Shown here: positions 4,398 to 38,156 of the stretch, piece after piece
How the letters are laid out: every line of letters starts with the position of its first letter
Position numbering within the stretch: position 1 is the first letter of the stretch
Assembly: GCA_002746935.1 (NCBI GenBank)
Contig: PDRW01000045.1
Span: 1 to 38,156, forward strand
Length of the DNA: 38,156 nucleotides
Reading direction: 5' to 3'
DNA from: Rhodobacterales bacterium
GTDB taxonomy: Bacteria > Pseudomonadota > Alphaproteobacteria > Rhodobacterales > Rhodobacteraceae
Translations under genes and position numbers: made by a program
The notes under the pieces: model-generated
Seen by the model: only the letters and a program-made list of their open reading frames with translations
Told to the model about the DNA's origin: nothing
Databases searched by the model: none

Positions 4398-4439
4398 GGT
4401 CTCGTTCCCTTGACTGCCCTCTCTGCCGGAGGGGTGTTT

Positions 4440-4732
4440 CTGCCGTTTTTCCGGGGGCACAGGACACGACGCGGCCGCGCACAAGCTTGCCACGGACCAC
4501 ACACGCACCCCAAGGCCCACCGCCTCTGGTTGTCGTCTTCCGTCACGGCAGGTCTCCTGGCTCGCGGGTCGTCGCTCGGCTGGCCTTCCCGGGCCCCGAA
4601 AAGGTCGGGTTCCCAGTGACATGTTCAGCGTCGCTTTCCGCTCACAGTTGCGGGGGCAGCGCCGGAGTTGGAGGTGTCTCCGCACCGGCTTCCCTGTTGC
4701 CTTCCCGGGTTTCCCCGGAAAACCATGACCTC
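4440..4732 (-). promoter_or_regulatory. cobalamin (B12) riboswitch in the nrdHIEF leader (aptamer ~4546..4732, expression platform down to the RBS)
   Basis: Reverse complement reads GGTCATGGTTTTCCGGGGAAACCCGGGAAGGCAACAGGGAAGCCGGTGCGGAGACACCTCCAACTCCGGCGCTGCCCCCGCAACTGTGAGCGG…GTCACTGGGAACCCGACCTTTTCGGGGCCCGGGAAGGCCAGCCGAGCGACGACCCGCGAGCCAGGAGACCTGCCG. AGCCAGGAGACCTGCCG matches the B12-box consensus rAGYCMGgAgaCCkGCcd exactly. The AGGGAA…CGGTG…GCTG.CCCCGCAACTGTgAGCGG core and the GCCACTG-like GTCACTGGG…GGGAAGGC element are also present. Confidence 0.85.
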
Positions 4733-11838: not shown

Positions 11839-11881
11839 CCCGGGTTTCGCCGTTGCCGAAAGGCGTGTCGCCCCGTTTACG

Positions 11882-11913
11882 AAAAGGGCGGCCCCCGGAA
11901 GGGCCGCCCGAAA
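11882..11913. terminator. bidirectional intrinsic terminator hairpin (gggcggccc-ccggaa-gggccgccc flanked by A/T runs)
   Basis: Perfect 9-bp GC stem with a 6-nt loop between the convergent ALDH (+) and beta-barrel (-) genes. A-run upstream and AAA downstream. Confidence 0.6.
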
Positions 11914-11930
11914 CGCTCATTTCACAGCCG

Positions 11931-21500: not shown

Positions 21501-22780
21501 CTGTCGCTGTTGTTGGCCGGGTTCTGATCGGTCGGGCCGGTCGAGGAAACCGTGACGGTGTTCTGGGCATTGCCCGCACCCACGACGGTCGCTTCGACAA
21601 TGACATTGCCAAGGCTGGTGTTGTTGCCCGCACCCGACGGGTCGGGGCGGGTGCAGCTCACCTCCTGCCCGGAGGTCGTGCAGGTCCAGCCGCCCTCGAT
21701 GACATTGTCGATCTGGTAGTTGCCCGGAATCGTATCGTTGAGCGTGAGCCCGCTGGGCGCATCGCCGGTGTATCTGGGCGCAAGGGTGAAGGTCACCGTA
21801 TCGCCCACCAGCAGGTTGCCGGTGTTCGGGCTGCGACTCTTGCTGACCGCCACGTCGGTTCCCTCGGTGACGTCCAGAGTGCCGGTGGCGGTGTTGTTGT
21901 CGGCATTCGGGTCGGGCGGGTTCTGGTTGATGACACTCGCCGAGGCGGTGATGTCAGACCCGCCGATCGCGGCGACCTGGCCGGTGAAGGTGCGGGTGAC
22001 GGAGGCGCCAACCGGGATCGAACCGGGAATGTTGCAGTTCCAGGTGCCACCGCTCAGGCTGCATCCGGCGGGCGCCGACATGTTGGTGATGCCGGTGGGC
22101 GCAGGGAAGGAAATGGTGAAGCCGTCGCTGGGGTGCGGGCCGTTGTTGGTCGCCGTCCAGACGAAATCGACCATGCTGCCGGCGGCAGCGGAAGAAGGGA
22201 TCGTGAGATCAAGCTGAATTTCCGCACCCCGCGTCAAGGTGGTGGTTTCGAGGTCGGAATTGTTGCCGGTGTTGGTCTCGACACCGGCAACCGTCGCCAC
22301 CTCGGCACCGACCTGAATCGAGCCCTCGATGTCGCTGGTCACCTGGACGACCGGCGTGATGTTTTCGTCGGCGGCCAGGGGCGGCACGGTGCAGGTCACG
22401 GTCAGCGGACCGGCGCCGGTGGTGGGCGCGCAATTCGTCAGCGGCGCGCTGACACCGACCAGAGAGGCGTTGGCGGGCACGTCGAAGGTCAACTGCGTTG
22501 CAGGCGCGCCCTGCGTGCCCGCGTTGGTGATCCGCAGGGTGTAGTCGATCACCCCGCCTGCCGCGTAGGTTACTCCGCCGTTCTCGCCGTCTTCGATGGC
22601 AAGCAGCCAGTCCACATTCTGAGCCCGCGCCTGGCCGGCACCCGACAGCACCCCGAGACAGAGCGCGAAGGTGAGAACCAGAAAACGCGCAAGAAAACCA
22701 AAACGCCGCACGGAAACCGTCCGGGGCTCAATATCACCATTCCACATCACAAGACCGCCTGTTTGCATTTGCCGCCGCAT
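15530..22780 (-). CDS. giant secreted surface/adhesin-like protein (2416 aa): Sec signal peptide, multiple DUF11-type 'conserved repeat domains', two SdrD-B/Cna-B-type domains, unique C-terminal ~110-aa domain
   Basis: N-terminal signal peptide …[31 protein letters not shown]. More than 10 diverged ~120-aa repeats carry …DVI.[16 protein letters not shown].LP… motifs, including three near-identical tandem copies. Cna-B-like segments read …[43 protein letters not shown]… and …[24 protein letters not shown]…. The protein is Thr/Asn/Gly/Val rich. The start is uncertain (ATG at 22780, or ATG at 22747 preceded by AGGCGG). The 2522-aa plus-strand ORF over the same DNA is an antisense artefact. Confidence 0.85.
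   Translation of the reverse strand: [2416 protein letters not shown]
17360..18440. repeat. three tandem ~369-bp (123-codon) near-identical repeats inside the adhesin gene
   Basis: Period measured between gtcgttgtcattggc landmarks at ~17728 and ~18097. Protein copies are [10 protein letters not shown]…/[10 protein letters not shown]…/[10 protein letters not shown]…, each carrying …FTVTNTGN…GAVDSTTFT…. Confidence 0.75.
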
Positions 22781-23240
22781 ATTGCGGGCATCCTGACTGA
22801 TTCTATTTCCGTTTCCTATTCATTTTCCAAGCGATTTTTTCCAATTGGTGAACAAAACAAGGGGCAATCGTCGCGTCGTTGCCACACCGGCATCAGCCAG
22901 CACGGCGTTATCCACAGGCAAGGTTCCGCCGGGCCGCAAATTCCGCAGATTCTCTCACACCGCCACCTCTTCTCCCGCACCGCCACCTCCGCCCGGCCGA
23001 CAGCGGTTCGCGGACCGGCCGGACGGATCCAAATGCCACGGGCACCCCCCTTGCCGGTCCGGTTTCACCGGATTCCCTGGCCCCGATTTCTCCAAAACTG
23101 ACCGATCCGGGCGTGAAATGACCACAATCCGCACCGACAAGACCGGCAACGCGAAACGCACCGGCAGGATTGACACGCTGCCGGACCGGAGGGGAAAACC
23201 GGGCAGGGTTTGCAAAAGGCATTCGGGCAGGAAAGCAGCA
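22781..23240. promoter_or_regulatory. 460-bp divergent intergenic control region (adhesin operon leftwards, C-PCP-TE gene rightwards) with AT-rich island 22800-22860
   Basis: The only markedly AT-rich stretch in the window (gattctatttccgtttcctattcattttccaagcgattttttccaattggtgaacaaaacaa). On the minus strand it contains TAGAAT, and on the plus strand TTGACA at 23170-23175 with a poor -10. No precise sites could be assigned. Confidence 0.3.
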
Positions 23241-25778
23241 ATGAACGACATGAAGGTGTCAGGCTCAGACAACGTCGTCGCGACCTTCCCGGCGTCGATC
23301 ACCCAGAAACGCACCTGGTTCATGGAGCAGATCCACCCCGGCGACCGGGGCCTGATCATCGCGCTGCACTGGGAATTGCGCGGGTCCGTCACCAGTGATG
23401 CGGTGGAACGTGCCTTCCAGACGATCACCGACCGTCACGAGGTCTTCCGCACCCGGTTTCGCGAACGCGACGGCGAACCGGTGCAGGAGGTGCTGGCGCA
23501 TGTGGATTTCAGGCTCGCCCGGCTCGATCTGCGCAATGTGCCGGAGGCCGACCGCGCCCGCAAGATCAGCGAGATCGCCAGCGAACATGCCGGGGAACCC
23601 TTCGACATGGGGCGTGCCGGGCTGATCCGGGTGGCGATGGTCCAGACCGGACCCGACCGCGCCGCGCTGCTGATCGCGGTGCACAACAGCGTGTTTGACG
23701 GCTATTCCATCGGCGTGCTGGGGCACGAGCTCGGCACCCTGCTGGAGGCGGAAGCAAGCGGCCAGCCCGCCGAACTGCCGGAACTGGCGCTGCAATACGG
23801 CGATTTCGCCATGTGGCAGGCCGATTACGCCGCCAGCGGCGCCTTTGCCGGGGAAGAGGCCTATTGGGCGCAAAAGCTCGGCGGCATGGCCTGTTTCGAG
23901 ATCCCGCCCGACCGGCCGCGCAGCCCCGGGCCTACCGAAAGCCGCAACTACGCCCGCGATCTGCCGGCGGATTTCGAGCCCCGCCTGGCCGGGACGGCAA
24001 AGGCGCTCGAAACCTCGCTGTTCACCCTCGGCACCACAGCCTTCGCGGTTGCCCTCGAACGCTTCACCGGACGGCGCGACGTGAGCTTCGCAATCCAGGC
24101 CGCGGGCCGGAACGAGGTGGACCTCGAACCGCTGATCGGCATCTTCACCAATCCGATGGTGCTGCGCTTCGACATCGACCCGGAGGCCCCGCTCTCGGAC
24201 CATGCCCGGGCGGCGCGCGACATCATCAATGGCGCCCTCGCCCACCAGATGCTGCCCTTCGACAGGGTGGTGCAGGTGCTCAACCCGCCGCGCGACCCGC
24301 TGCGGATCCCGCTGGTGTCGATCATGTTCGGCCTGCAACCCGGCTTCCTGAAGACCCGCCGCTATGGTGCGATCGAACTGGTTCCGGAAATCTCGGATGT
24401 GCCCGGCACGCTCTACGATCTCAATGTCAACATTGCCGGGCACAAGACCGGCTGGCGGCTGGTGATCGACTACAACGCCAGGCTGTTCGACGAAGCGACG
24501 ATTGCGCGGTTTGCGGCGCTGCTGGTCGAGGTGCTCGACAGCCTGATGCACCACGCGGAGAGGCCGGTCGGCACGCTCCGGGCGGAGACGGAGCCCCGAC
24601 CGGAGGCCCGACCTGAGACTGCCGCCGGGGAAGCCCCGCTTGCGGTGGCGCCTTCAGAGGCGGCAGAGGAGGGAACCGCCGAAGGGGCAGCCACGATCGA
24701 AAGCCTGCGCGCGATCTGGTCCGATGTGCTCGCCATCCCGGCCGACAGTGCCACGGGCAATTTCTTCGACCTCGGGGGCCATTCGATCCTTGCGCTGCGG
24801 ATGCTGGCGATGGTCGCCGAAAGTTTCGGCCAGCGCCCGTCGATCCAGGCCTTCCTCGCCGACCCGACCCTTGAAGGACTGGCCGGCGTGCTCAACCCGC
24901 CCGCGCCCTCCCCTGCCCCGCAGACCGGCCCGGCGGCGGCGCCCGATACCGCCCCGAACCCGATCTGGGATCTCACCGAGCTGCGGGCGTCTTCGGCCGA
25001 CGCACCGGTGCTGATCGCCGTCAATCAGCCGTTCATGTTCCACGCCCTGGCGCGCGAGATGGTTGCCGATTGCGCCGTGGCGAGCCTGAGCGTTCCCGGC
25101 GCGGCAGAATTGCAGGCGCTCGAACAGGCCGGGCTCGATAAGGCGATCGAGGCCGCTCTCGCCCCGGTGCTTGCCCGCTACGCCGGGCGGCCGCTGATGT
25201 TTTGCGGCCTCTGCGTCGACGGGCTCGTCGCCCTCCGCCTCGCCCAGCGCCTGCGCGACGAGGGGCAGAACACCGCCCTCGTGGCGATGATCGACAGCTG
25301 GGCGCCCGGGTCCAGCCGGGCGTTTTCGCGGCTGCGCAAGAGCCTCGATCGCTGGCACATCCGCTTCCGGCGGATCGGCTATTATCTCGGGCTCCGGCGT
25401 CAGGGCGAGATCGGCTGGACCGATGTGCTGCGCCAGAACGATCTTGCCGCCGGGATCATCGCCCGGCTCACCGGGGTGCCCGCGAAAAACGAGACCGAGA
25501 CGCTGGTCGATGACACCGTCGAGGTGCTGGTCGGCCTGACCCGGGGCTATCGCTTCGCCCCCTATGATGGCGAGGTGGTGCTGTTCATCACCCGCTCGCA
25601 GGCGATGGTGCCGAAGGACGGCGTGCTTGGCTGGTCGGGCCTGCTGGCGGCGGATGTGACCGCCTATCCGGTCAACGGCTGGCATGGCGACGCACTGATG
25701 CGCAGCGGGTTCGAGCGGATCATCGGCGTGCTGGACGTGAAGGCACAGAGACTGCGCCGCGCCACGCCGCCGGGGTGA
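23241..25778 (+). CDS. stand-alone NRPS protein: condensation domain (variant HNxxxDG) - PCP - thioesterase (Cys nucleophile)
   Basis: 845-aa product. AGGAAAG RBS precedes ATG 23241, and an in-frame alternative ATG lies at 23118. C-domain motifs include …LIAVHNSVFDGYS…. The PCP reads …FFDLGGHSILALRM…. The alpha/beta-hydrolase TE reads …MFCGLCVDGLVALRLAQRL…IDSWAP…GWHGD…, aligning to GxSxG with Cys at the nucleophile position. Confidence 0.85.
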   Translation: MNDMKVSGSDNVVATFPASITQKRTWFMEQIHPGDRGLIIALHWELRGSVTSDAVERAFQTITDRHEVFRTRFRERDGEPVQEVLAHVDFRLARLDLRNVPEADRARKISEIASEHAGEPFDMGRAGLIRVAMVQTGPDRAALLIAVHNSVFDGYSIGVLGHELGTLLEAEASGQPAELPELALQYGDFAMWQADYAASGAFAGEEAYWAQKLGGMACFEIPPDRPRSPGPTESRNYARDLPADFEPRLAGTAKALETSLFTLGTTAFAVALERFTGRRDVSFAIQAAGRNEVDLEPLIGIFTNPMVLRFDIDPEAPLSDHARAARDIINGALAHQMLPFDRVVQVLNPPRDPLRIPLVSIMFGLQPGFLKTRRYGAIELVPEISDVPGTLYDLNVNIAGHKTGWRLVIDYNARLFDEATIARFAALLVEVLDSLMHHAERPVGTLRAETEPRPEARPETAAGEAPLAVAPSEAAEEGTAEGAATIESLRAIWSDVLAIPADSATGNFFDLGGHSILALRMLAMVAESFGQRPSIQAFLADPTLEGLAGVLNPPAPSPAPQTGPAAAPDTAPNPIWDLTELRASSADAPVLIAVNQPFMFHALAREMVADCAVASLSVPGAAELQALEQAGLDKAIEAALAPVLARYAGRPLMFCGLCVDGLVALRLAQRLRDEGQNTALVAMIDSWAPGSSRAFSRLRKSLDRWHIRFRRIGYYLGLRRQGEIGWTDVLRQNDLAAGIIARLTGVPAKNETETLVDDTVEVLVGLTRGYRFAPYDGEVVLFITRSQAMVPKDGVLGWSGLLAADVTAYPVNGWHGDALMRSGFERIIGVLDVKAQRLRRATPPG

Positions 25779-25801
25779 ACCCGGGTTTGAACGACCGGAG
25801 C

Positions 25802-25839
25802 AAAAGCCCCGCCCCGCTGACTTCGGGGGGCGGGGTTTT
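25802..25839. terminator. bidirectional intrinsic terminator (AAAA-gccccgcccc-loop-ggggcggggc-TTTT)
   Basis: 9-bp GC stem flanked by an A4 run on one side and a T4 run on the other. It lies between the convergent stop codons at 25778 (+) and 25842 (-). Confidence 0.7.
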
Positions 25840-25841
25840 CG

Positions 25842-28800
25842 TCAGATCCCCCGGCGCGCGCCGCGGCGATAGGATTTGAGCGTCGGTTTCTTCGCGGCAC
25901 CCTCACCGCCCTCACCGCCCTCACCGGAACCCCGGCTGTCGGCAAACCCCGCGAGTTCGGCGATCGTCGGATAGTCCAGCATATGGCGCGCCTCGACATT
26001 GAGGCCCGCGTCGATCATCCGCGCCGCAATGCGGAACAACGTGAGCGAATCCGCCCCGAGCGAAAACAGCGTCTGGTCGGTGCCGACCTCGTCGACCCCA
26101 AGCACCTCGCACCAGATGGCGGCCATCCGGCGTTCGGTCTCCGTCTCCGGCGCGGTATGCTGCACCGCCACACCGGCCGGAACCTCGGGCTCCGGCAGCG
26201 CCTTGCGGTCGAGCTTGCCATTGGCGGTCTGCGGCAGGGCATCAAGCCTCACCCAGGCCGTGGGCACCATATAGCCCGGCAGCCGCCCGGCGAGCGCGCG
26301 GCCGAGCGCCTCCGGCGCCGGCGCCTGCCCCGGTTCGGCCACCACATAGCCCACAAGCTGGTCGTCGCCGCGCGGCGACCTGCGCAGCGCCGCCGCCGCG
26401 GCGCGCACCCCGTCGAGCTCACGGATCCGCGCTTCGACCTCGCCAGGCTCGATGCGGAACCCCCTGAGCTTGATCTGCCCGTCGGTGCGGCCGAGCACCT
26501 GCAGCGTGCCATCGGCCAGCCGCCGGGCAAGGTCGCCGCTGCGGTAGAGCCGCTCCGCCTTGCCGTTCACCACCACTTCGCGGAAGGCCTGGCGCGTCAG
26601 CTCCGGCTGGCGGAAATAGCCTTTCGCGAGGCCCGCCCCGCCGATATTGAGCTCGCCCACCGCGCCCACGGGCAGAAGCTGATCCTGCGCCCCGAGCACA
26701 TGCAGCGTGGTGTTGGCCACCGGATGGCCGATGGTCACCGGCGCGCCGGGCGACACCCGCGAGATCGCCGACCAGATGGTGGTTTCGGTGGGGCCGTAGA
26801 CGTTCCACAGCGCCGCGCCCCCGGCGGTCAGACGCTCGGCCAGATCCTGCGGCAGGGGCTCGCCGCCCGCCAGCATGGTGAGCCCCGGCGCGGGCGCAAA
26901 TCCGGCCTCGGTCACCATCTGCCAGAGCGTCGGCGTGGCCTGCATATGGGTGATGTCACCCTTGCCGAGCCGCTCCACCAGCCGGAAGCCGTCAAGCACA
27001 TCCTCCGGCGCGGCAATCACCACCTTGCCGCCACGGATCAGCGGCAGGAACATCTCCAGCACGGAAATGTCGAACATCGTCGTGGTCACCGCGAGCAGCA
27101 CGTCGTCGGCCGCAAACCCCGGCTCTTCGGCCATCGAGGCCAGCAGGTTCACCACCGAGCGCTGGGAGATCTCGACCCCCTTGGGCGTGCCGGTGGAGCC
27201 GGAGGTGAAGATCACATAAGCGGTATCGTCGCCGCTGAACGCCACCGGCGCCGGCACCCCGCTGACACCAACCCCGGCGAGCGGAAGCGAGGTGAGGCCA
27301 AGCCCGGCGGCATAATCCGGCACCTCCGCCCGGTCGTGCACGATCGCCGAAACCTCTGCGGTTTCAAGGATCATGCGCAGCCGCGCGGGCGGCTGGGCGG
27401 GGTCTATGGGCACATAGGCATTGCCGCTCTTCATCACCCCGAGCAGGGCGACCACACATTCCATCGAACGCGGCAACGCCACCGCGATGCGCCCTCCCTC
27501 GCCGACGCCCGCATCCTGCAACGCCCGGGCGATGGCATCGCTCCCCGCGGCAAGGCCGCGATAGGAGATCCGCTGATCGCCGGATTCGAGCGCGATCCGG
27601 TCCGGGGTTTCGGCGGCCACATGGTCGACGAGCTGATGCACGGTTTCGAAATCCGGCAGCGGGGCTTCGGTGCGGTTGAGCTCATCGGCAAGCCAGGCCC
27701 GTTGCGCCGTACTCTGCACCGGCAGCGTGGCGACCGGTCGCGCGGTATCCGCCGCCATCTCCTCCAGCACGGTTTCCAGATGCCCGATCCAGCGCCGGAT
27801 TGTCTCCGGCTCGAACACATCGGCGTTGTAGTCGACATCGAGACGCAGACCGTCGCGGCGCTCGACGATGTTGAAGAACAGATCGAAATTCACCGCCGCC
27901 TTCGGGTTCGGCGCCGCCGTCATCCGCAGGGGCCCCATGTCGACGCTCTCGCCAAGGCGTTCGAGGTTGAACTGCACTTCGGTCAGCGGCACCCGGTCGA
28001 GCGCGCGCGCCACATCGAGCTCCCGCACCAGCGTGCCGAAGGTGTAATCCCGATGGTCGAGCGCGGCGGCGGTCCGTTCGGCGACGAACCGCAGATGCTG
28101 GGCAACCGTCGCCCCCGGCGCCACCCGGGCGCGGATCGGCAGGAAGTTGACGCAATGGCCCACGAGGTTCGGGTTGTCGAGCAGGGCCTGCCCGCCGGTC
28201 GGCACCCCGAGGACCACGTCGTCAGAACCGCTGAGCCGTCCGAGCACGATTTGCAGCGCGGCAAACAGGGTCGCGAACAGGGTACAGCCCTCCGCCGCCC
28301 CCGCCTTGCGCGCGGCCCGCATCACCTCGCCCGGGATCTGCGCGGTGACGGTGCCGCCGCGGTAGGATTTCACCGCCGGGTGCGGGTGGTCTGACGGAAG
28401 CTCCGGCACCTCCGGCACCTCGGCATATTCCTCATGCCAGAAGGCGCGCGCCTCAGGGGCCGGGCCCTTGCGCGCCTTTTCCAGCGCGTGGGCAGCGAAG
28501 GAGGGCGCGGGCACCAGCCCGGCGGGCGTGCCGCTGACCGCCTCGCGGTAGAGCGCGGCAAGCTCCTGCGTGAGCACATTGAACGACCAGCCGTCGCAGA
28601 CGATGTGATGCGCATCGAGCACCAGCACATGGTCTTCCGCCGAGCGGCGCACGAGAAAGGCGCGCAAGGGCGGGCCGGTGACGATGTCGATCTCGGTGGC
28701 GGAATCCTCGGCCAGAAGCGCGGCGAACGCCGCTTCCGGGTCATCCGCGCCGCTGAAATCATGCAGCGCGAGCGGCATCGGGAACGGGTCGAGAATGTCG

Positions 28801-31800
28801 AAGCTTTCGCCGTTGCGCGCAAAGACACAGCGCAGCCCGTCGTGGCGGGCAATGAGCCGGTCGAACGCCGCCTGAAGCGCGGGGACATCGAGCGGACCGT
28901 CGAGCGTGAAGGAGATGCTTTCGTTGAAGCTGCACGAGGCGGTGGCCCCCTGCTGGCTGGTCATCCAGATTTCGCGCTGCGCTTCGGTGAGCGGGATGGC
29001 TTTGGTGGGCGCGGGGTCGGCCCCGGGCGCGCCGTCAGGCTCCCCCGGCCCGTCACCCGGCCCGTCACCGGTCAGAATGCCGACGCCGCGCAGCGCATCG
29101 ACCGATTGTTCAAACACCTCGACCACCCGGTCATAGTCCGCCGGCTCATGCGCCGTGGTGAACAGGCAGGGGTAGCCGATCTGCACATGCACCCCCGCCA
29201 ACCGCATCAGCGGGAACAGCAATGCGGCGTTGGGGTCGTGGTCGGTCACCTGCGGCACGAACCAGCTCGAATAGCTCTCCACCAGCGGTGGCAGCCCGCG
29301 CGCGGCGAGGGCGGCGTTCATCCGCGTCACCGCCGCTTCGGTGCGCCGCGCGGTCTCGTCCCAGAGCTCGGGGCCATGGGCCTCCAGATGGTCGAGCGTG
29401 GCATCCACCGCCGCCAGCACCAGCGGGTGACGCACGAAGGTGCCGGCAAAGAAGGTCGGCATCGCTTCGGGCACCGACCCGTCGCCGAAGGACCACATGC
29501 CGCCGTCGAGCGCATCCATGAACCGCGCCGAACCCGCCAGCATGCCGATCGGCATGCCGCCGCCCATCACCTTGCCATAGGTGGCCATGTCGCCCTGGAT
29601 GTCCCAGACGCCCTGCATCCCCCTCGGGCCGACCCGGAAACCGGTCACCACCTCGTCCATGATCAGCGCCGCACCCGCCTCGCGGGTGATCTCGCGGATA
29701 TCCGCCACAAAGCCCTGCGGGCGCAGGTTGGGGTGACGGCTCTGCACCGGTTCGACCACCACACCGGCGAGGGTGTCGATATGGGCGCGGATCCAGTCGA
29801 GGCTTTCCGGCGCGCCATAGGGCAGCACCACCATGTTGGACAGGCTCGACCGCGGAATGCCCGGCGCGATCGGCAGCGCCGCCGGGTCGCCGCGTCTTTT
29901 GCCTTTCACCAGCACCTCGTCGAACTGGCCGTGGTAATCGTTGGAGAACACCACGATCCGCTCACGTCCGGTCACCGTGCGGGCCACCCGCATCGCCGCC
30001 ATCACCGCTTCGGAGCCGGTGTTGCAGAAGGTCGCGCGTTCATGGCCGACCATGCGCGCGAAACGCGCCGCCACCGGCCCGGCAAGGTCGCTCTGCGGTC
30101 CGATGGCGAAGCCGCGTGCCATCTGGGCGGTGACCGCCTCGATCACGAAATCCGGCGAATGGCCGAAGGCCGTCTGGCCGAAGCCGTTGACGAGGTCGAT
30201 ATATTCGTTGCCGTCGATGTCCCATATCCGCGCGCCCCTGGAGCGGTCGCAGACCACCGGATAGACCAGTTCCTTCCACTCGGCGCGGAATCCGGCGGCG
30301 CTGCGCGGATCGGCCAGCACCGCGCGGTGGGTCTGGACATAGGCCTTGGACTTCGGGCTGCGGGCGCTGTAGCGCGCGGCGAGGTCCTGGGCGAAGGCCA
30401 GTTGCGCAGGCGTCAGCGCGCCGCCCGCGGCATTGGTGGCCCGGCCGATGGAGAAGCCGCGTTTCGCCTCCGGTTCAGCGGCGGCCTCCGGCTCGGCCGC
30501 GGGGGCCGCCCTGGCGGCGGGCGTCTGCGGTGCGGGGCTGGGTGCGTCTGACACGGGGGTTTGCGCGGGCAATGCGGTACCACCCGAAAGCGCGGCAAGC
30601 TGTTTCGCAAACACCTGCTGCATGGTCGCAAGCTGCGCCTGCACCAGCGCCGCCACCGGGGTGTCGGCGGGCAGATCCCCGGCGCCGGGGATCATCGGCG
30701 CCCCGGTGATGGACGCGGGCGCGGCGGGCGCGGTCATCTGAACCGGTTCCGGCAACACGGGCGCCGCCGGCGCGGGGGCGGCGGCTTCGGGGGGAAGGGT
30801 CTCGTCGAGCCAGGCGGCCACCGCCTCGGCCGTCGGATAATGCGCGAGCAACTCACGGAAGGTCAGTTCGACGCCGTAATCCGCCGCCAGCCGCTGGCTG
30901 ACCTGGCCGAGAAACAGCGAGTCGAACCCAAGCTCGAGGAACGTGGCCCCGGCGTCCTCGGGGGTGAGATCCTCGCCGGAAATCTCGCCCAGAATGGCGA
31001 GCAATTCACCGACCAGACGCGGCTTGCGGTCGGCCGGTTCGGGGGTGGGCGCAGTGGGCGCATCGTTCATCGGGGGCACCTCCTGAGGGGTGGGGGGCGT
31101 GGTCTGAACAGCAGGCGCGGGCACCAAAGCGGCCGCACTCGCCCCGGCACAGGCGGCCGGCGCGCCTCCCGCGCCCGGCGCAGGCGCCTCGACCCAATGC
31201 CGCTTGCGCTGGAACGGATAGCCCGGCAGCGCGACCCGCCGGCTGCCGCGCGGCCCGAGCTTCGCCCAGTCCACCTCGGCCCCGGCGCTCCAGAGCTGTC
31301 CGAAGGCCTGCGCCATCGCCACCGCGTCGGGCTCCGCCCGGGTGTGATCGGGCAGCGACTGGACAATCGCCACCTCCGCCTCGCGCGGCAGGCTCTGCCG
31401 GGCGAAAGCCGACAGCGTGTTGCCCGGCCCCGCTTCGAGCAGGATCGCCGGGCCCGCGCCCGCGAGCGCTTCGACACCGGCCTGGAAATTCACCGTCGCC
31501 CGCGCCTGACCGGCCCAATAGGCCGGGTTGGTGGTCTCGGCACCGGTGACCCAGGTGCCGGTCACACAGCTCACATAGGGAATTCCCGGCGGCGCCAGCC
31601 GGACGCCGGAAATCGCTTTGCCCAGCGCATCGCAGACCGGATCCATCATCGCCGAGTGGAAGGCATGCGAGGTATGCAGCCGGCTACAGGCGATGCCCGC
31701 CGCCTTGAGCCGCGCTTCCATCCGGTCGATCGCCTCGAAACCGCCTGCGAGCACGTTGAGCCGCGGTGCGTTGCGGGCGGCGATGTCGACCGTGCCGTCG

Positions 31801-34800
31801 AGATGCGGCGCCAGATCCTCCATCGGCACCCGCACCGAGAGCATCGCCCCCCCGGGTTGGGCCTGCATCAACTCGCCCCGCCGCGCGATGATCCCGAGAC
31901 CGGTCTCGAAATCCATCACCCCGGCGAGCACCGCGGCGGTGAACTCACCCACCGAATGGCCGATCATCGCCGCCGGTCTCACCCCGCGCGTCACCCAGAG
32001 CCGGGCGCAGGCGAACTGGGTCAGGAACAGCGCGGGCTGGGTCAGCCGGGTTTCGCGCAGGGCGCGCGCCATGTCTGCGTCGGACGGATCGCCGAAACAG
32101 AGCATGGTCTTGACATCGAGCCCGAGGATCGGCCGCAGGATCTCGGCGCCGGCGTCGATCCAGCGGGCAAATTCCGGCTCGCTGGCGTAAAGCCCGCTGC
32201 CCATGCCGGGGTATTGCGACCCCTGCCCCGGAAACATGAACGACACCGGCGGGTTGCCCTCCATCGCCGGCCGGCGCAGGGCGGGGGCGCTGCGGAGCGC
32301 GGCCGCGAGGCTTGCGGGATCCGTCCCCGCCACCGCGCTCCGGCAGGCAAAACCGGGCCGCCCCTCTTGCAGCGTGAAAGCCGCATCGGCCGGATGCGGC
32401 GCATCGCCCGCTTCCAGCGCGTCGGCCAGGCGTTCCTGCATCGCCTTCAGCGCCTCCGGCGTCTTCGCCGACAGCGGCAGCACCTGCACCCCCCCGGGCG
32501 CGGCCTTCCGGGCCACAGCCGGGGCTTCTTCCAACACCAGATGCACATTGGTGCCCCCGACGCCGAAGGCGCTCACCCCGGCGCGCAGCGGCAACGGCCC
32601 GTCCCAGGGTTCGAGCCCCGCAGGCACCCGGAACGGGGTGCCGGTGAAGTCGATATTGGGGTTCAGCGCCTTGAAACTGGCAACCGGCGGCAGCTTGCGG
32701 TGGGCGAGCATCAGCACCGTCTTGATGGTGCTGACCACCCCGGAGGCGGCATCGAGATGGCCGATATTGCCCTTCACCGACCCGAGCGCGCAGCTTTCCG
32801 CGGGCAGACCCTCGCCGAAGGCGCGCGTCAGACCGCTGATCTCGATCGGGTCGCCGAGCGGCGTCGCGGTGCCGTGGCATTCGACATAGGAGATCGTCTC
32901 CGCCCCGACACCCGCATCCGCCTGCGCCAACCGGATCGCCGCCGTCTGGCCGGAGACCGATGGCGCGGTGAAAGAGATCTTGCCGGCGCCGTCATTGTTG
33001 ACCCCGGCGCCGCGGATGATCGCATGGATCTGGTCGCCGTCGGCCAGCGCGTCTTCGAGCCGGCGCAGCACCACCACGCCCGCGCCATGGGAAAACACCG
33101 TGCCGGAGGCGGCGGCATCGAAGGGGCGGCAGGTGCCGTCGTCGGAGGAAAGCCCCCCCTCCTGCGCCAGATAGCCACGCCGCTCGGGGAAGGTGATCGA
33201 CACCCCGCCCGCAAGCGCCATGTCGCATGTGCCCGCGCGCAGGTTCAGCACCGCCTGCGCAATCGCGGTGAGCGAGGTGGAACAGGCTGTCTGCACGGTC
33301 ATCGCCGGGCCATGCAGGTTGAGCTTGTAGGCCACCCGCGTGGCCAGACAATCGCCGAGATTGCCGGTCATCTCGGCGAATTTGCCGGTCTGGTAATTCG
33401 AGGTGAATGCCTCCGCCTCGCCGCGGTCGCCCAGCAGGTTGTGGATGAGATAGGTATTCATCGACGACCCGGCGAAGACCCCGACCGGCATGTCCATATG
33501 CAACGGGTCGTGCCCGGCCCGCTCCAGCGCGTGGTAGCAGATTTCGAGGAAGACGCGGGCCTGCGGGTCGGTCACCGCCGCTTCGCGCGGGTACATGCCG
33601 AAGAATTTCGCGTCAAACAGCGCCGCGTCGTCCAGCCCGGGGCGGACCGGCACATAGGCCGCGGAGGCGCGTTGTTCTGCCGTGAAGCTGTCTTCCAGTT
33701 CGTCGGCGCCAAAGGGGCGGATGAGGTTGGTGCCGCGCGCGACATGCTCCCAGAATTCGGCCAGCGATCCGGTGCCGGGAAGGCGCGCGGCCATGCCGAC
33801 GATGGCAATCGCCCCTTGCGGAAGCGCCGCCGGGGGCGCGGGTTCCGGCGCGGGCGCGGGTTTCGCCGGCGGCGCGGGTTCCGGCGCGGGCTCAGACGCG
33901 GCCACCGCTGGCGCCTCCGGTTCCGGCAGCCCCTGCCCGGCGATCCCGGCGATCCCGGCGAGCTTTTCGGCAAGCGGTGCAAGGCGGGGCACATCAAACA
34001 TCACTGTAATGTCGAAATGCACACCGAGCGCCTTTTCCAGCGTCGCATGGACATTGATCAGCTGAAGCGAGCTGCCCCCCGCCTCGAAGAAGGTCATGTC
34101 ACCCGGGACCGGCCCGCAGCCCAGCACCTCGTCCCAGATCCGCGCGATGATCCGCTCGACCTCTCTGGCGGTGACCTTCCCCGCCGCCGGTTCTGCCCGG
34201 GCCCCGTCGGGGGCCGCCGCTTTCTCTTCAAGACTTCGTACCAGCGCCTTGCGGTCAACCTTGCTGTTCACCGTCAGCGGGAAATCCGCAACCACACGGT
34301 TGACCCGGGGGTGCATCCCCTCGGGCAGGCGCGCGCCCAGCGCGTCCATCACCGCGCGAATGAAGCCGGGAGGGTCGGCGGGCATGGCGCCGGCGGGTTT
34401 CAGGAAAGCGGCAATGCGTTTCTCGCCGGTGCCGGCCGTGGTCAGCACCACGGCGGCATCGACCAGCATCGGCAGCGCGCGCAGGTTGTGTTCGATCTCG
34501 TCGAGCTCGATCCGCCGCCCGCCGAGCTTGACCTGACGGTCGGTGCGGCCATGAAACTCGTAGAGCCCGTCGGCGCGCCGCCGCGACAGATCGCCGGTCA
34601 GATAGACCAGCCCCTCACGCCCGGGCCTGGGGTCTTCGATGAACGCCTCCGCGGTGCGCTCCGGCTGGTTGAGATAGCCCAGCGCCACGCCGTCGCCGGC
34701 AGCCACCAGCTGGCCGATTTCTCCGTCCGGCAGAACTTCGTGGTCCTTGCCGACCACGAAACACTCGCAGAACCCCGTCGCGCTCCCGATCGGGAGCGCG

Positions 34801-35786
34801 CTGCCGTCGAGATCGTCCGGAGAGACCAGATGCTTGGTGGTAAAGACCGAATTCTCCGTCGGCCCGTAACCGTTGATGATCTCGATCTGCGGATCGGCCT
34901 GCATCAGCCGCCGCGCCAGCGGCGCCGACATCACATCGCCCCCCGCGCCAAACTGCCGCAGCCCCACCAGGGCATCGCGCTGATGTTCGATCATCAGATG
35001 CGCAAGCCCGGTGTAGAACCAGGCGACCGTGACCTGTTCCTCCCGGATGGTGCGCGCCAGCGCCTCCAGCGAGGGCTTGGGCTGGCACACCACGGCCACT
35101 GCGGCACCATTGAGCAGCGGGGCCCAGATCTCCCAGGTCGAAAGATCGCAGGCAATGGTGGAATTGGCGAGCGAAACATCGCCGGGAAGGATCTGCCCGA
35201 CCGGCTGGGCATATGCCAGCCGCGCGAGCGAGCGGTGCGGCAGCACCACGCCCTTGGGGATTCCGGTCGAACCGGAGGTGTAAAGGATGCAACAGGGGTC
35301 TTCGCCGCTACGCACCGGGAAACCGGCTTGCACCGCCGGTTCGTCGCGCAGCAAATCCGCCACGGCGGCACGGGGCACCGCGCCGGCGAGGCTTTCGGCC
35401 AGCGGGCCATAGGGCGCATCCCACAGGATCACCGAGGGGCGCGCATCCCCGATCACATAGCCCAGATGCTGTGAATCATAAGCCGGATCGAGCGGCACGA
35501 AGGCGCAGCCCGCGCGCATGATCCCCGCCATCGCCACAATCGCGTCCGGCGTCCGGTTGCTGATCAGCGCGATGTTGTCGCCAGGTTTCGCGCCGCTGGC
35601 GATCAGGTGCCGCGCAACCCTGTCAGCCGCCCGGGCCATTTCGGCATAGCTGTAGCGCCTGCCGCCGCCGGTGAGGGCGAGGTTGTCCGGGGCGATCTCC
35701 TTCGCACGCAGGAAACAGCTGTAAAGATCGAGCCCGCGATCATATCCGAGCTTGGCAAAACGGTCAGCCATGGCGTTGTGCGGCAT
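25842..35786 (-). CDS. hybrid NRPS-PKS megasynthase (3314 aa): A-PCP-KS-AT-ACP-aminotransferase(class III)-C-A-PCP
   Basis: Start ATG 35786 has a GAGGGG RBS. A1 carries core motifs (TSGSTGIPKGV, NGYGPTE, GRTDRQVKLGGRRIELDEIE) and PCP1 carries GGSSL. KS has TACSTS, HGTAT and GNIGH. AT has GHSVGE plus HAFHS (malonyl-type). The ACP reads LGFDSL. An embedded GSA-aminotransferase-like domain contains …DEVVTGFRVG…. The C domain has canonical AHHIVCDGWS. A2 has TSGSTGTPKGV and …FDISVLEMF…. PCP2 reads LGADSL. There is no terminal TE. This is the same domain order as MycA/ItuA beta-amino-acyl lipopeptide starter synthetases. Confidence 0.9.
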   Translation of the reverse strand: MPHNAMADRFAKLGYDRGLDLYSCFLRAKEIAPDNLALTGGGRRYSYAEMARAADRVARHLIASGAKPGDNIALISNRTPDAIVAMAGIMRAGCAFVPLDPAYDSQHLGYVIGDARPSVILWDAPYGPLAESLAGAVPRAAVADLLRDEPAVQAGFPVRSGEDPCCILYTSGSTGIPKGVVLPHRSLARLAYAQPVGQILPGDVSLANSTIACDLSTWEIWAPLLNGAAVAVVCQPKPSLEALARTIREEQVTVAWFYTGLAHLMIEHQRDALVGLRQFGAGGDVMSAPLARRLMQADPQIEIINGYGPTENSVFTTKHLVSPDDLDGSALPIGSATGFCECFVVGKDHEVLPDGEIGQLVAAGDGVALGYLNQPERTAEAFIEDPRPGREGLVYLTGDLSRRRADGLYEFHGRTDRQVKLGGRRIELDEIEHNLRALPMLVDAAVVLTTAGTGEKRIAAFLKPAGAMPADPPGFIRAVMDALGARLPEGMHPRVNRVVADFPLTVNSKVDRKALVRSLEEKAAAPDGARAEPAAGKVTAREVERIIARIWDEVLGCGPVPGDMTFFEAGGSSLQLINVHATLEKALGVHFDITVMFDVPRLAPLAEKLAGIAGIAGQGLPEPEAPAVAASEPAPEPAPPAKPAPAPEPAPPAALPQGAIAIVGMAARLPGTGSLAEFWEHVARGTNLIRPFGADELEDSFTAEQRASAAYVPVRPGLDDAALFDAKFFGMYPREAAVTDPQARVFLEICYHALERAGHDPLHMDMPVGVFAGSSMNTYLIHNLLGDRGEAEAFTSNYQTGKFAEMTGNLGDCLATRVAYKLNLHGPAMTVQTACSTSLTAIAQAVLNLRAGTCDMALAGGVSITFPERRGYLAQEGGLSSDDGTCRPFDAAASGTVFSHGAGVVVLRRLEDALADGDQIHAIIRGAGVNNDGAGKISFTAPSVSGQTAAIRLAQADAGVGAETISYVECHGTATPLGDPIEISGLTRAFGEGLPAESCALGSVKGNIGHLDAASGVVSTIKTVLMLAHRKLPPVASFKALNPNIDFTGTPFRVPAGLEPWDGPLPLRAGVSAFGVGGTNVHLVLEEAPAVARKAAPGGVQVLPLSAKTPEALKAMQERLADALEAGDAPHPADAAFTLQEGRPGFACRSAVAGTDPASLAAALRSAPALRRPAMEGNPPVSFMFPGQGSQYPGMGSGLYASEPEFARWIDAGAEILRPILGLDVKTMLCFGDPSDADMARALRETRLTQPALFLTQFACARLWVTRGVRPAAMIGHSVGEFTAAVLAGVMDFETGLGIIARRGELMQAQPGGAMLSVRVPMEDLAPHLDGTVDIAARNAPRLNVLAGGFEAIDRMEARLKAAGIACSRLHTSHAFHSAMMDPVCDALGKAISGVRLAPPGIPYVSCVTGTWVTGAETTNPAYWAGQARATVNFQAGVEALAGAGPAILLEAGPGNTLSAFARQSLPREAEVAIVQSLPDHTRAEPDAVAMAQAFGQLWSAGAEVDWAKLGPRGSRRVALPGYPFQRKRHWVEAPAPGAGGAPAACAGASAAALVPAPAVQTTPPTPQEVPPMNDAPTAPTPEPADRKPRLVGELLAILGEISGEDLTPEDAGATFLELGFDSLFLGQVSQRLAADYGVELTFRELLAHYPTAEAVAAWLDETLPPEAAAPAPAAPVLPEPVQMTAPAAPASITGAPMIPGAGDLPADTPVAALVQAQLATMQQVFAKQLAALSGGTALPAQTPVSDAPSPAPQTPAARAAPAAEPEAAAEPEAKRGFSIGRATNAAGGALTPAQLAFAQDLAARYSARSPKSKAYVQTHRAVLADPRSAAGFRAEWKELVYPVVCDRSRGARIWDIDGNEYIDLVNGFGQTAFGHSPDFVIEAVTAQMARGFAIGPQSDLAGPVAARFARMVGHERATFCNTGSEAVMAAMRVARTVTGRERIVVFSNDYHGQFDEVLVKGKRRGDPAALPIAPGIPRSSLSNMVVLPYGAPESLDWIRAHIDTLAGVVVEPVQSRHPNLRPQGFVADIREITREAGAALIMDEVVTGFRVGPRGMQGVWDIQGDMATYGKVMGGGMPIGMLAGSARFMDALDGGMWSFGDGSVPEAMPTFFAGTFVRHPLVLAAVDATLDHLEAHGPELWDETARRTEAAVTRMNAALAARGLPPLVESYSSWFVPQVTDHDPNAALLFPLMRLAGVHVQIGYPCLFTTAHEPADYDRVVEVFEQSVDALRGVGILTGDGPGDGPGEPDGAPGADPAPTKAIPLTEAQREIWMTSQQGATASCSFNESISFTLDGPLDVPALQAAFDRLIARHDGLRCVFARNGESFDILDPFPMPLALHDFSGADDPEAAFAALLAEDSATEIDIVTGPPLRAFLVRRSAEDHVLVLDAHHIVCDGWSFNVLTQELAALYREAVSGTPAGLVPAPSFAAHALEKARKGPAPEARAFWHEEYAEVPEVPELPSDHPHPAVKSYRGGTVTAQIPGEVMRAARKAGAAEGCTLFATLFAALQIVLGRLSGSDDVVLGVPTGGQALLDNPNLVGHCVNFLPIRARVAPGATVAQHLRFVAERTAAALDHRDYTFGTLVRELDVARALDRVPLTEVQFNLERLGESVDMGPLRMTAAPNPKAAVNFDLFFNIVERRDGLRLDVDYNADVFEPETIRRWIGHLETVLEEMAADTARPVATLPVQSTAQRAWLADELNRTEAPLPDFETVHQLVDHVAAETPDRIALESGDQRISYRGLAAGSDAIARALQDAGVGEGGRIAVALPRSMECVVALLGVMKSGNAYVPIDPAQPPARLRMILETAEVSAIVHDRAEVPDYAAGLGLTSLPLAGVGVSGVPAPVAFSGDDTAYVIFTSGSTGTPKGVEISQRSVVNLLASMAEEPGFAADDVLLAVTTTMFDISVLEMFLPLIRGGKVVIAAPEDVLDGFRLVERLGKGDITHMQATPTLWQMVTEAGFAPAPGLTMLAGGEPLPQDLAERLTAGGAALWNVYGPTETTIWSAISRVSPGAPVTIGHPVANTTLHVLGAQDQLLPVGAVGELNIGGAGLAKGYFRQPELTRQAFREVVVNGKAERLYRSGDLARRLADGTLQVLGRTDGQIKLRGFRIEPGEVEARIRELDGVRAAAAALRRSPRGDDQLVGYVVAEPGQAPAPEALGRALAGRLPGYMVPTAWVRLDALPQTANGKLDRKALPEPEVPAGVAVQHTAPETETERRMAAIWCEVLGVDEVGTDQTLFSLGADSLTLFRIAARMIDAGLNVEARHMLDYPTIAELAGFADSRGSGEGGEGGEGAAKKPTLKSYRRGARRGI

Positions 35787-36125
35787 AGTGCACCCCTCTC
35801 AATCGCGGTGGCCCTCTGCCGCCCGCGATCATGAAAATCCTTGCAAGCCGGAGCCCTGCCGGGCTGCCATGCCCGCTGCCTGCAACTCTCCGGGCGCTTG
35901 CGCTTCTCTGCCCTTGAACCCGAACTCTATGGCAAAGGTTGGAAAATTGTGAGTCAACCCCGACGAAATGCTGAAAGGCGCAGCGCTGGCCCGGCGCCCG
36001 CGGCGGTGGTAGCCTTCCGGCCGGGACAGAGGAGAGGCAAAACATGTTCGAGACCGCAGCCGCGCACCCCGCCATGCGCACCCTGCCCCGGTGCCGTCCC
36101 GGCCTCTTCCCCGCAGGAGGGACGG

Positions 36126-36824
36126 GTGTTTGATATCGGGCTTCACCTCTGGCTGCTCGACCCTTCGGACCATCTGTTGCCGGACCTCCGACGGCTGCTG
36201 TCGGAAGACGAGCGCGCCCGCGCCGCGCGGTTTGTCCGTCCGCTTGACCGTGACCGCTACATCACCGGACGGGCGCGGCTTCGCCAGATCCTTGCGGCCG
36301 CAACCGGTCGCGACCCGCGCGCCCTTCGCTTCAGTTACGGTGCCCACGGCAAACCCGCGCTCAAGGGGGGGCCTGCGTTCAACCTCAGCCATAGCGGACC
36401 GCTTGCCGCGCTGGCGATCGGCCCTGCGGCCACGCCCGCGATCGGGATCGGGATCGACATCGAACGGATCCGCCCGATCGAAGCCGCCGTTGCGCGGCGG
36501 CATTTCTCGCCAGCGGAACATGCAGCCCTCGGCCAGATGCCCGCCGCCGACTGGCTCACCGGGTTCTATCGCTGCTGGACCCGCAAGGAAGCCCTCGTCA
36601 AGGCGCAGGGAACCGGCCTGTCGATGCCGCTCGACAGTTTCGACGTTTCCCTGACAGACAACGCCCGGCTCGAGCGGATCGACGGTGACAGCCCCGGCAA
36701 CTGGCGAATGATCCATTTCAACCCCGCGCCCGGCTGGGTGGGGGCGGTTGCGGCGCGCACCGGCGGGCAGGAGATCGCTTTGAGCCTGCGCGAGACCGGC
36801 ACGCCGCCCCTGCCCTTCGGCTAG
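36126..36824 (+). CDS. Sfp-type 4'-phosphopantetheinyl transferase
   Basis: 232-aa product from GTG 36126, preceded by an AGGAGG RBS 5 nt upstream. Motifs include FNLSHSG, GIGIDIE and WTRKEALVKAQG. It is divergent from the megasynthase promoter. The ORF-track start at 35841 would lie inside the divergent promoter and give an implausibly long product. Confidence 0.8.
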   Translation: MFDIGLHLWLLDPSDHLLPDLRRLLSEDERARAARFVRPLDRDRYITGRARLRQILAAATGRDPRALRFSYGAHGKPALKGGPAFNLSHSGPLAALAIGPAATPAIGIGIDIERIRPIEAAVARRHFSPAEHAALGQMPAADWLTGFYRCWTRKEALVKAQGTGLSMPLDSFDVSLTDNARLERIDGDSPGNWRMIHFNPAPGWVGAVAARTGGQEIALSLRETGTPPLPFG

Positions 36825-37091: not shown

Positions 37092-38156
37092 ATGTTTGGC
37101 TGCACTAGGAAGTCTGGGCTTTTTTCTCTGATTATCACTCTTTCGGTCGTTTTCTGGGGGGCGCTGGTGCAATCCGCCCGCGCCGATCTGGATTATGCCG
37201 ATCTGATCGGGCGTATCGACGAACGGCTGACCGGCGCGGCCGCCGCCTATCAGCAGGGCGACGCCGACACGGCGAAAGATGCCGTCCAGTCGGCCTATTT
37301 CGAGATCTTCGAGAACCTCGAAGGTCCGATCCGTGTCAATGTCTCGGCGGCCAGATCCTATGAGCTCGAGGCGGAATTCGGCGACATCCGCAAGCTGATC
37401 ATCGACGGCGCCCCGCCGGAGGTCGTGCAGGCGCGCATCGAGGCGCAGATTGCGGCGATTCGCGCGGTTCTGCCGGATCTCGAATCCGGTGTGCGGCTGC
37501 GCGGCGAGCCGGGCCGTTACGAGACCGGGGAAGCCGCGCCCGAGGCGGCGGCCGCCCCCGCTGCCGACGAGCCCATAGAGCCGGAATGGCAGGCCGTGGT
37601 GGACGGGATTGGCGAGACGATCGCCCAGGCTGCTGCCGTCTACGAACAGGGTGAGGCCGAACAGGCCGTCGATCTGGTGCTGAAGGCGCAGTTCGACGGA
37701 TACAAGAATTCGCTGCTGGAAACCGCGATCCGCCGTTATCGCGACAGCAACACGGATGCGGCGATCAACGGCGAATTCAGCCGTATCGTCGGGCTGATCC
37801 ACGATGGCCGCCCGGCGCGCATGGTCGCAGCGTCAGGCAAACAGATGGTGGTGGAGCTGACCGGTCTTCTGCCGGGCCTGCCGCTTCTGGGCGACAATGG
37901 CACCGCGCGGCCCGCGCCCGCACCGGTCGAGGCCGACAAGGACTGGGCACAGGTGGGGGCACAGGTCATGGCGGCGGTCGACCGCGCCATTGCAACCCAG
38001 GCCGGCGGCGACAGCAAGGCGGCGGTGTCCGACATTCAGAACACCTATTTCGACGTCTTCGAAGCCTCGGGGATGGAAGGTGCCATCGGGTTGCGCGATG
38101 CGGGCCTCAAGGCAGATATCGAATCGCATTTCTCGCACCTCACGGCGCTGTTCAAG
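37092..38156 (+). CDS. secreted/periplasmic protein with three internal ~90-aa repeats, 5' partial (runs off window end); function unknown
   Basis: ATG 37092 with a GAAGG RBS. Signal peptide MFGCTRKSGLFSLIITLSVVFWGALVQSARA|DL. Three repeats carry A..Y.QG(D/E)A…A(V)….YF(D/E).FE… motifs and GC3 is high. No stop occurs before 38156, which is why it is absent from the ORF track. The minus-strand ORFs across it are judged antisense. Confidence 0.5.
   Translation, partial: MFGCTRKSGLFSLIITLSVVFWGALVQSARADLDYADLIGRIDERLTGAAAAYQQGDADTAKDAVQSAYFEIFENLEGPIRVNVSAARSYELEAEFGDIRKLIIDGAPPEVVQARIEAQIAAIRAVLPDLESGVRLRGEPGRYETGEAAPEAAAAPAADEPIEPEWQAVVDGIGETIAQAAAVYEQGEAEQAVDLVLKAQFDGYKNSLLETAIRRYRDSNTDAAINGEFSRIVGLIHDGRPARMVAASGKQMVVELTGLLPGLPLLGDNGTARPAPAPVEADKDWAQVGAQVMAAVDRAIATQAGGDSKAAVSDIQNTYFDVFEASGMEGAIGLRDAGLKADIESHFSHLTALFK

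Follow-up and report, generated by a model that had tools for sequence, protein, structure and literature searches.

What is made by the three genes at positions 23241-36824 of contig PDRW01000045.1, and is the assembly line that they encode complete? The window, by which we mean the whole stretch of 38,156 nucleotides analyzed (Rhodobacterales bacterium, GenBank assembly GCA_002746935.1), carries here a hybrid megasynthase of the nonribosomal peptide synthetase (NRPS) and polyketide synthase (PKS) types on the reverse strand. Convergent with it is a forward-strand gene for a separate protein with condensation (C), peptidyl carrier protein (PCP) and thioesterase (TE) domains, and divergent from it, on its upstream side, is a forward-strand gene for a 4'-phosphopantetheinyl transferase (PPTase). 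We write the first domain of the separate protein as C*, a label justified by its motif HNSVFDG in place of the usual HHxxxDG. A preliminary description of the locus had envisaged a MycA/ItuA-like route to a small beta-amino-acyl peptide or lipopeptide. The evidence now leans towards the locus being a member, intact and with only three genes, of a hybrid NRPS-PKS family found widely among marine Rhodobacterales and soil Hyphomicrobiales; it would work by the mechanism set out below, and the product is most likely a small diamino-acid-glycine peptide rather than an iturin-like lipopeptide.

Domain organization and proposed pathway

Domain calls were based on a Pfam domain search, NCBIfam models and a regular-expression motif scan, and the E-values, which range from 1e-45 to 1e-151, exclude chance matches. 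The megasynthase contains, in order, an adenylation domain (A1), a PCP, a ketosynthase (KS), an acyltransferase (AT), an acyl carrier protein (ACP), an aminotransferase (AMT), a C domain, a second adenylation domain (A2) and a final PCP. Pfam reports two AMP-binding and three PP-binding domains, and places the KS at residues 659-1038, the AT at 1183-1502, Aminotran_3 at 1842-2153, Condensation at 2263-2697, the second A domain at 2721-3191 and the last PCP at 3220-3281. The same search found no TE in the megasynthase and no ketoreductase, dehydratase or enoylreductase in its PKS module. The motif scan located the core motifs A3-A10 in both A domains and the AMT motifs DEVVTGFR and YGKVMGGG. 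The domain order without a terminal TE, the convergent C*-PCP-TE gene, the divergent Sfp-type PPTase, all orientations and both outer ends (the ATG at 23241 and the PPTase stop at 36824) are as the preliminary description gave them.

The center of the megasynthase carries the MycA-like logic. As in a MycA-type module, a KS and carrier protein without reductive domains are followed by a pyridoxal phosphate (PLP)-dependent aminotransferase of the glutamate-1-semialdehyde (GSA) type, and the segment KS-AT-ACP-AMT-C-A-PCP is homologous to MycA. The AMT matches the structure of the MycA AMT (6KFM) over its full length (query 13-464 on chain 8-459, E 4.6e-116), with the PLP lysine in register, and its match to the glutamate-1-semialdehyde aminomutases (HemL) is far weaker (E 6e-52). 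By these alignments the domain is to be classed as a true MycA-type aminotransferase; the preliminary description, which had proposed beta-amination, had allowed that the region might prove to be something other than a PLP aminotransferase. One malonyl extension is predicted because the AT carries the HAFH motif and the module has no reductive domain. For A2, the extracted specificity code agrees with a glycine code at nine of ten positions. The same or nearly the same glycine code, together with the HAFH motif, is present in five relatives at 50-72% identity.

The starter is the feature on which the class of product turns. Codes of both A domains were read from an alignment to residues 234-526 of GrsA-PheA, with the sequence checked to be identical to 1AMU. 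Against TIGR01733, the 'amino acid adenylation domain' model with a cut-off of 317 bits, A1 reaches 350; the PDB entries that it matches best are A domains of NRPSs, LgrA and SrfA-C among them; and its code, DLWWGGGVFK, keeps Asp235 and Lys517, the residues that bind the alpha-amino and carboxylate groups. Because of the model score, the two residues and the structural matches, A1 is predicted to load an alpha-amino acid and not a fatty acid, which settles a choice that the preliminary description had put between an amino-acid A domain and a fatty-acyl-AMP ligase. Among more distant homologues of A1 that form stand-alone A-PCP proteins, 94 of 120 have the codes DAFWLGGTFK, DALWLGGTFK or DAFWIGGTFK, which we take to be valine codes and with which the window code has six of ten positions in common. 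One such valine-code protein, P0302 of Methylocella silvestris BL2, is encoded directly upstream of KS-AT-ACP-AMT-C-A-PCP and C-PCP-TE genes; since it adjoins the rest of the assembly line, we regard the stand-alone proteins as loading modules of the same pathway. With valine as the presumed family consensus, the first amino acid is probably hydrophobic or aliphatic.

The C*-PCP-TE gene starts at its ATG behind a Shine-Dalgarno-like AGGAAAG, and its product is identical to gene call P0121. In an alignment of its TE to that of EntF, the Cys of GLCVDG falls on Ser1138 of EntF (GYS(1138)LGG), and the Asp of MIDSW and the His of NGWHGD fall on the other members of the EntF triad. The PPTase qualifies as Sfp-type (group II), being two-lobed and roughly 230 residues long with AASDHPPT_N and ACPS domains; its best NCBIfam match is HetI, at 128 bits and under the equivalog cut-off. 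Translation of the PPTase probably begins at the GTG at 36126, which AGGAGG precedes by seven bases.

From these parts we propose the following route. The PPTase would prime the four carrier domains to the holo form, and A1 would adenylate an alpha-amino acid, probably hydrophobic or aliphatic, and load it onto PCP1. The KS would extend the starter by one malonyl unit from the AT to a gamma-amino-beta-ketoacyl-ACP, and the MycA-type PLP domain would transaminate the beta-keto group to yield a 3,4-diaminoacyl thioester, which the canonical C domain would join to glycine loaded by A2 on PCP3. The chain would then be handed to the separate C*-PCP-TE, whose carrier, PCP4, is most likely loaded in trans, in the simplest case by A2 with a second glycine; PCP4 is probably used, because its carrier serine is conserved. 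C*, with Asn for His, may act differently or only as a docking partner. The Cys-Asp-His TE would release a small peptide, either linear by hydrolysis or as a lactam onto one of the two free amines. The steps through glycine coupling rest on domain identities and established MycA-type chemistry; we infer the identity of the first amino acid, the role of C*, the loading of PCP4 and the mode of release. One malonyl unit, one amino acid from A2 and release by the protein acting in trans, which is the only release candidate, were also what the preliminary description had anticipated.

The assembly line itself is complete and not a piece of something larger, because all relatives examined build their entire assembly line from the identical domain set, with none extra, divided over one to three proteins. 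The possibility, raised earlier, that the locus is a fragment of a much larger cluster does not hold for the assembly line.

Relatives, their neighborhoods and absent partners

The best relatives come from Ruegeria marina, Paracoccaceae, Sulfitobacter and Rhodobacter. Over the full length of the megasynthase, amino acid identity is 72% in Ruegeria marina and 71% in L002, a Paracoccaceae metagenome-assembled genome (MAG) that shares the convergent arrangement, is 75.5% identical at the nucleotide level over 11.9 kb and has a PPTase 67% identical to that of the window. Identity falls to 56% on a plasmid of Rhodobacter sp. CZR27 and to about 50% on a plasmid of Rhizobium sp. SL42 (L008) and in Methylocella silvestris BL2 (L013). 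More copies lie on replicons of Sinorhizobium (chromids), Ensifer, Rhizobium, Jannaschia and Loktanella, and many occur in metagenomes of several phyla. The Hyphomicrobiales loci (Methylocella, Rhizobium SL42, Sinorhizobium) have the same domain order, a glycine A2, a malonyl AT and a C-PCP-TE with a Cys TE. They differ in having a stand-alone loading A-PCP protein, whose code is usually that for valine, and in Methylocella the C-PCP-TE keeps a remnant of an A subdomain.

Is this locus already known under another name? The Roseobacter NRPS/PKS cluster, reportedly first described by Martens et al. in 2007, resembles it in taxonomic neighborhood and in joining NRPS and PKS with a dedicated PPTase, but includes a glycosyltransferase, of which there is none on this contig, and differs from the window, where NRPS and PKS are fused in one 3314-residue protein. 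In genome-mining papers published between 2015 and 2023 the conserved Roseobacter cluster appears repeatedly; it consists of NRPS, PKS, glycosyltransferase and PPTase genes, with its product uncharacterized (PMC4337385, PMC5014874), and is found in 28 of 57 genomes (PMC4337385); the product of Rhodobacteraceae NRPS-T1PKS clusters was still called unknown in 2023 (PMC10584327). The window locus probably corresponds to this cluster, matched by gene content and taxa, not by sequence. It is therefore best seen as a stripped-down member of a known orphan family that has been uncharacterized for nearly twenty years, and no new kind of system. A 2013 survey of PLP domains by Milano et al. (PMC3870968) listed layouts of the form A-CP-KS-AT-CP-AMT, with 'Nrp-Mal-Gly' predicted for proteins of Pedobacter heparinus and of Thiocapsa marina. 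Compared with the window by their description, these have the same succession of amino-acid starter, malonate, GSA-type AMT and glycine; they belong to other phyla or classes and are database entries only. Myxoglucamide (PMC13638107) was considered as a relative and ruled out, since it has no AMT and begins with a fatty-acyl-AMP ligase (FAAL).

The neighborhoods of the relatives are those of an exopolysaccharide (EPS)-type locus, with one or more glycosyltransferases, Wzx, Wzc, Wza and Bac_transf. Such surroundings (GT4/GT2 glycosyltransferases and Wz genes) were seen in Rhodobacter, Ruegeria, Aliigemmobacter, Rhizobium and several metagenomes. Relatives also carry a CocE/NonD (peptidase S15) hydrolase, and the subclade nearest the window has instead a GINT1_N protein and a glycoside-hydrolase-like protein. 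The GINT1_N protein (glucosamine inositolphosphorylceramide transferase 1, N-terminal), roughly 510-550 residues long, is encoded after the C-PCP-TE in L010, L011 and L012 and at 22183-23844 of L008, its carriers being Ruegeria marina, Rhodobacteraceae bacterium D3-12, Aliigemmobacter aestuarii and Rhizobium sp. SL42. It and the CocE/NonD hydrolase look like alternative partners.

In the window, the Pfam search of open reading frames (ORFs) and tblastn with the glycosyltransferases of relatives found no glycosyltransferase, and tblastn recovered no remnant of the CocE/NonD hydrolase, Wzx or other neighbors of relatives (nothing better than E 0.05). No MbtH-like motif was detected in any of its six frames, and the Pfam search of window ORFs identified no transporter or tailoring genes adjoining the three genes, as the preliminary description had noted. 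Its term 'minimal cluster' is apt for this contig, but relatives have conserved extra genes.

Several points weigh against the reading proposed here. To our knowledge the A1 code has no exact match among known codes, and the nearest relatives have DGWFRGGVFK and DGWLRGVVFK, which differ from it; for both reasons the identity of the first amino acid is uncertain. The contig stops 1.3 kb past the PPTase. A glycosyltransferase, a CocE/NonD or GINT1_N gene and polysaccharide-export genes accompany nearly all relatives and are absent from the window; the pathway here may be incomplete, or its accessory genes may be situated in another part of the genome. The chemistry is a prediction, since no member of the family has a known product. 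In addition, C* lacks the second His, to which an important part in condensation is generally ascribed in C domains (PMC13638107), so that C* may add no residue.

These absences lead to the alternative that comes off best. The product may normally be glycosylated or attached to a polysaccharide, in which case the window would encode an aglycone core with its partners elsewhere, or would make an unfinished intermediate. The association of the relatives' assembly line with GT4/GT2, Wzx, Wzc, Wza, Bac_transf and CocE/NonD or GINT1_N genes speaks for it, as does the glycosyltransferase of the published Roseobacter cluster (PMC4337385, PMC5014874). However, no such genes were found by tblastn in the window, housekeeping genes lie upstream of the Methylocella silvestris copy (the only side seen), and co-location by itself is no proof of a shared pathway. 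We consider this alternative possible, if rather unlikely.

We suggest more tentatively than the core pathway, as something that may well not hold in full, that the family represents a chemotype without precedent in the literature searched: a beta,gamma-diamino acid, built from an alpha-amino acid and malonate with transamination on the assembly line and joined to glycine, made with an unusual terminal C*/Cys-TE module devoid of an A domain, with a product that normally acts at the cell surface together with EPS machinery. No characterized product and no beta,gamma-diamino-acid assembly line were found in that literature. If true, the window copy, being without accessory genes, would offer the simplest way to find what is made by an orphan cluster that is among the most widely conserved in marine Rhodobacterales. 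With its three genes the copy makes a convenient construct for heterologous expression. For the Roseobacter family the scheme offers a concrete prediction, namely an amino acid, malonyl, beta-amination, glycine and a Cys TE on a module without an A domain, and the comparison shows that the same assembly line reaches Rhizobium, Sinorhizobium and Methylocella.

The terminal module and less likely readings

Is the locus instead a decaying, non-functional remnant, left after loss of accessory genes? The partner genes of relatives are gone, the terminal C domain is without a catalytic His and the terminal module is without an A domain, all of which could be read in this way. Among 50 homologues of the terminal protein, 29 have Asn at the second-His position of C*, 11 have His and 8 have Gln; no variation is seen at the motif's first His, its Asp or its Gly. 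The carrier serine is kept in 49 of the 50, the TE Cys and the TE Asp likewise in 49 each, and the TE His in 39. Since the serine, Cys and Asp are so nearly universal, the terminal module is better explained as being under selection than as decaying. The HN motif and the missing A domain are moreover common to about 30 relatives that keep the PCP serine and the TE triad, and by this comparison are to be regarded as family traits, not decay. The megasynthase, too, is an uninterrupted ORF of 9.9 kb in which the motif scan found every catalytic motif, and its G+C content at third codon positions (GC3) is 0.85, within the cluster range of 0.83-0.85 that is comparable to the housekeeping genes of the contig. 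Decay is accordingly an improbable explanation.

The form of the terminal module can be followed through the family. In the window protein about 40 residues separate C* and PCP, and the A domain is absent; in Rhodobacter sp. CZR27 and two metagenome relatives this interval holds a remnant of 70-90 residues of the C-terminal subdomain of an A domain, and the full C-A-PCP-TE architecture occurs in relatives at a greater distance. These remnants and full-length relatives show that the terminal module arose from an ordinary elongation module through loss of the A core.

Three loci (L005, 15190-17910; L006, 4779-7541; L007, 10343-13099) encode C-PCP-TE proteins with a vestigial A C-terminal subdomain, recognizable by an A9/A10-like 'LPR..G...R..L' without the Lys, and these proteins lack the TE His that the subclade of the window has. 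On both grounds two structural subtypes of terminal module can be distinguished. In L002, the C-PCP-TE region (19988-21824) aligns with the window protein as two separate tblastn segments that leave out the PCP region (residues 552-688), a gap that may reflect a frameshift or an assembly error in the MAG.

A lipopeptide is less probable still. On that account A1 would be a fatty-acyl-AMP ligase starting a MycA/ItuA-like synthesis of a beta-amino fatty-acyl lipopeptide, as the preliminary description had partly supposed. The likeness to MycA/ItuA is real: the KS-(AT)-ACP-AMT-C-A-PCP logic and the domain order are the same, the AMTs are close homologues, and in both the beta-keto group would become a beta-amino group on the carrier protein. 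Ralstonia megaplasmid synthetases, which we take to be probably lipopeptide synthetases, also match the AMT-C region at about 40% identity. Yet against fatty-acid ligase models A1 scores only 110-174 bits (cut-offs 476-766), whereas it passes TIGR01733, keeps Asp235 and Lys517, has homologues with valine codes and finds its best structural matches among NRPS A domains; FAAL identity was ruled out on the model score, the two residues and these matches. MycA and ItuA begin with an N-terminal fatty-acyl-AMP/CoA ligase loader, where the window has an amino-acid A domain, and continue into further multi-module NRPS subunits ending in a TE, where the window and all relatives examined have only the C*-PCP-TE with its Cys nucleophile and no A domain. 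The A2 of MycA is specific for Asn, and that of the window is predicted to take glycine. Puwainaphycin has a related beta-amino fatty acid lipopeptide starter (PMC4219810). The lipopeptide branch of the preliminary description is dropped on these grounds, with the beta-amination retained.

A Cys nucleophile is less common in NRPS TEs and is used by SulM, which forms a beta-lactam, and ObiF, which forms a beta-lactone; both enzymes carry the triad Asp at position II, behind strand beta7, and the motif in SulM is Gln-Cys-Asn (PMC11298585). That the window TE, likewise with a Cys nucleophile, closes such a strained ring on the beta-amino group installed by the AMT and available in the predicted chain is hardly credible, because its Asp aligns at the usual EntF position, its motif reads Leu-Cys-Val, and at least one glycine would stand between the beta-amino carbon and the thioester, so that a four-membered ring could not form at release; a beta-lactam-forming TE was ruled out on these three counts.

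Feature coordinates and contig surroundings

Table 1. Genes, domains and motifs of the locus, in window coordinates.
Feature	Position	Strand	Basis
C*-PCP-TE protein, 845 aa, terminal module without A domain	23241..25778	+	Pfam Condensation, PP-binding, Thioesterase
C* active-site motif HNSVFDG (second His of HHxxxDG replaced by Asn)	23682..23702	+	motif scan, alignment
PCP of terminal module, GGHS	24702..24890	+	Pfam PP-binding
Thioesterase, Cys-Asp-His triad, GLCVDG, Cys codon 25212-25214	25035..25724	+	Pfam; alignment to EntF TE
Hybrid NRPS-PKS megasynthase, 3314 aa, A1-PCP-KS-AT-ACP-AMT-C-A2-PCP	25842..35786	-	Pfam and motif scan
PCP3, LGADSL; behind it a 30-aa tail rich in Gly/Glu and Lys/Arg	25944..26129	-	Pfam and motif scan
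A2, code DILQLGVIWK (glycine)	26214..27626	-	code extraction; TIGR01733, 391 bits
Condensation domain, canonical HHIVCDG	27696..29000	-	Pfam and motif scan
PLP aminotransferase (AMT), MycA type, Lys in YGKVMGGG	29058..30413	-	PDB 6KFM match; Pfam Aminotran_3
ACP, LGFDSL	30807..31019	-	motif scan
Acyltransferase, GHSVG and HAFH, malonyl-type	31281..32240	-	Pfam and motif scan
Ketosynthase, Cys-His-His (TACSTS, HGTAT, NIGH)	32673..33812	-	Pfam and motif scan
PCP1, FFEAGGSSL	33897..34109	-	Pfam PP-binding; motif (GGSS) read from translation
A1, amino-acid adenylation domain, code DLWWGGGVFK	34227..35699	-	TIGR01733, PDB matches, 1AMU numbering
Divergent intergenic region, megasynthase/PPTase	35787..36125		closest relative (L002) has a CocE/NonD hydrolase gene between these two
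Sfp/HetI-type PPTase, 232 aa	36126..36824	+	Pfam AASDHPPT_N (PF22624) and ACPS (PF01648)

The G+C content across the window is 61-72%, and both strands carry long ORFs, among which GC3 picks the cluster frames as coding. Antisense ORFs at 15533-23101 (+), 11853-15905 (+), 30561-35474 (+) and elsewhere, up to 2522 residues long, shadow real genes. They have zero Pfam matches, low GC3 and high G+C at first codon positions (GC1), and are artefacts of the high G+C.

On the right, the ORF at 37092-38156 (+) is cut off by the end of the contig. Its N-terminus resembles a signal peptide, and it contains an internally repeated helical pattern (Y/F-F-[ED]-x-F-E); it is apparently the start of a secreted protein and returned no Pfam match.

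On the left, a Logan assembly of SRR6011892 independently joins the same neighbors to the C-PCP-TE gene, so this junction is not an assembly artefact. The nearest gene (15530-22780, -) encodes a 2416-residue protein with at least 10 DUF11/CLIPPER and 4 DUF7507 repeats. It follows directly downstream of a gene (11931-15593, -), sharing 64 bases with it, that encodes a 1220-residue protein with weak outer-membrane beta-barrel-like matches (DUF7840, DUF2490, DUF481). The two look like a surface adhesin and its outer-membrane partner. They stand beside the cluster in no relative and were for that reason left out of it.

Further left come an aldehyde dehydrogenase gene and then housekeeping genes: ihf/hu, lapA, trpF, a trpB-like gene, an SPFH gene and nrdHIEF. 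The last of these form a class Ib ribonucleotide reductase operon at 624-4685 (-), with nrdH-like, nrdI, nrdE and nrdF genes. Its glutaredoxin-like ORF, 169 residues as listed, has an apparently long N-terminal extension, and its start is probably mis-set. A partial gene opens the contig at 1-436 (+), and the C-terminus that it encodes weakly matches homocysteine S-methyltransferase (PF02574, E 0.003).

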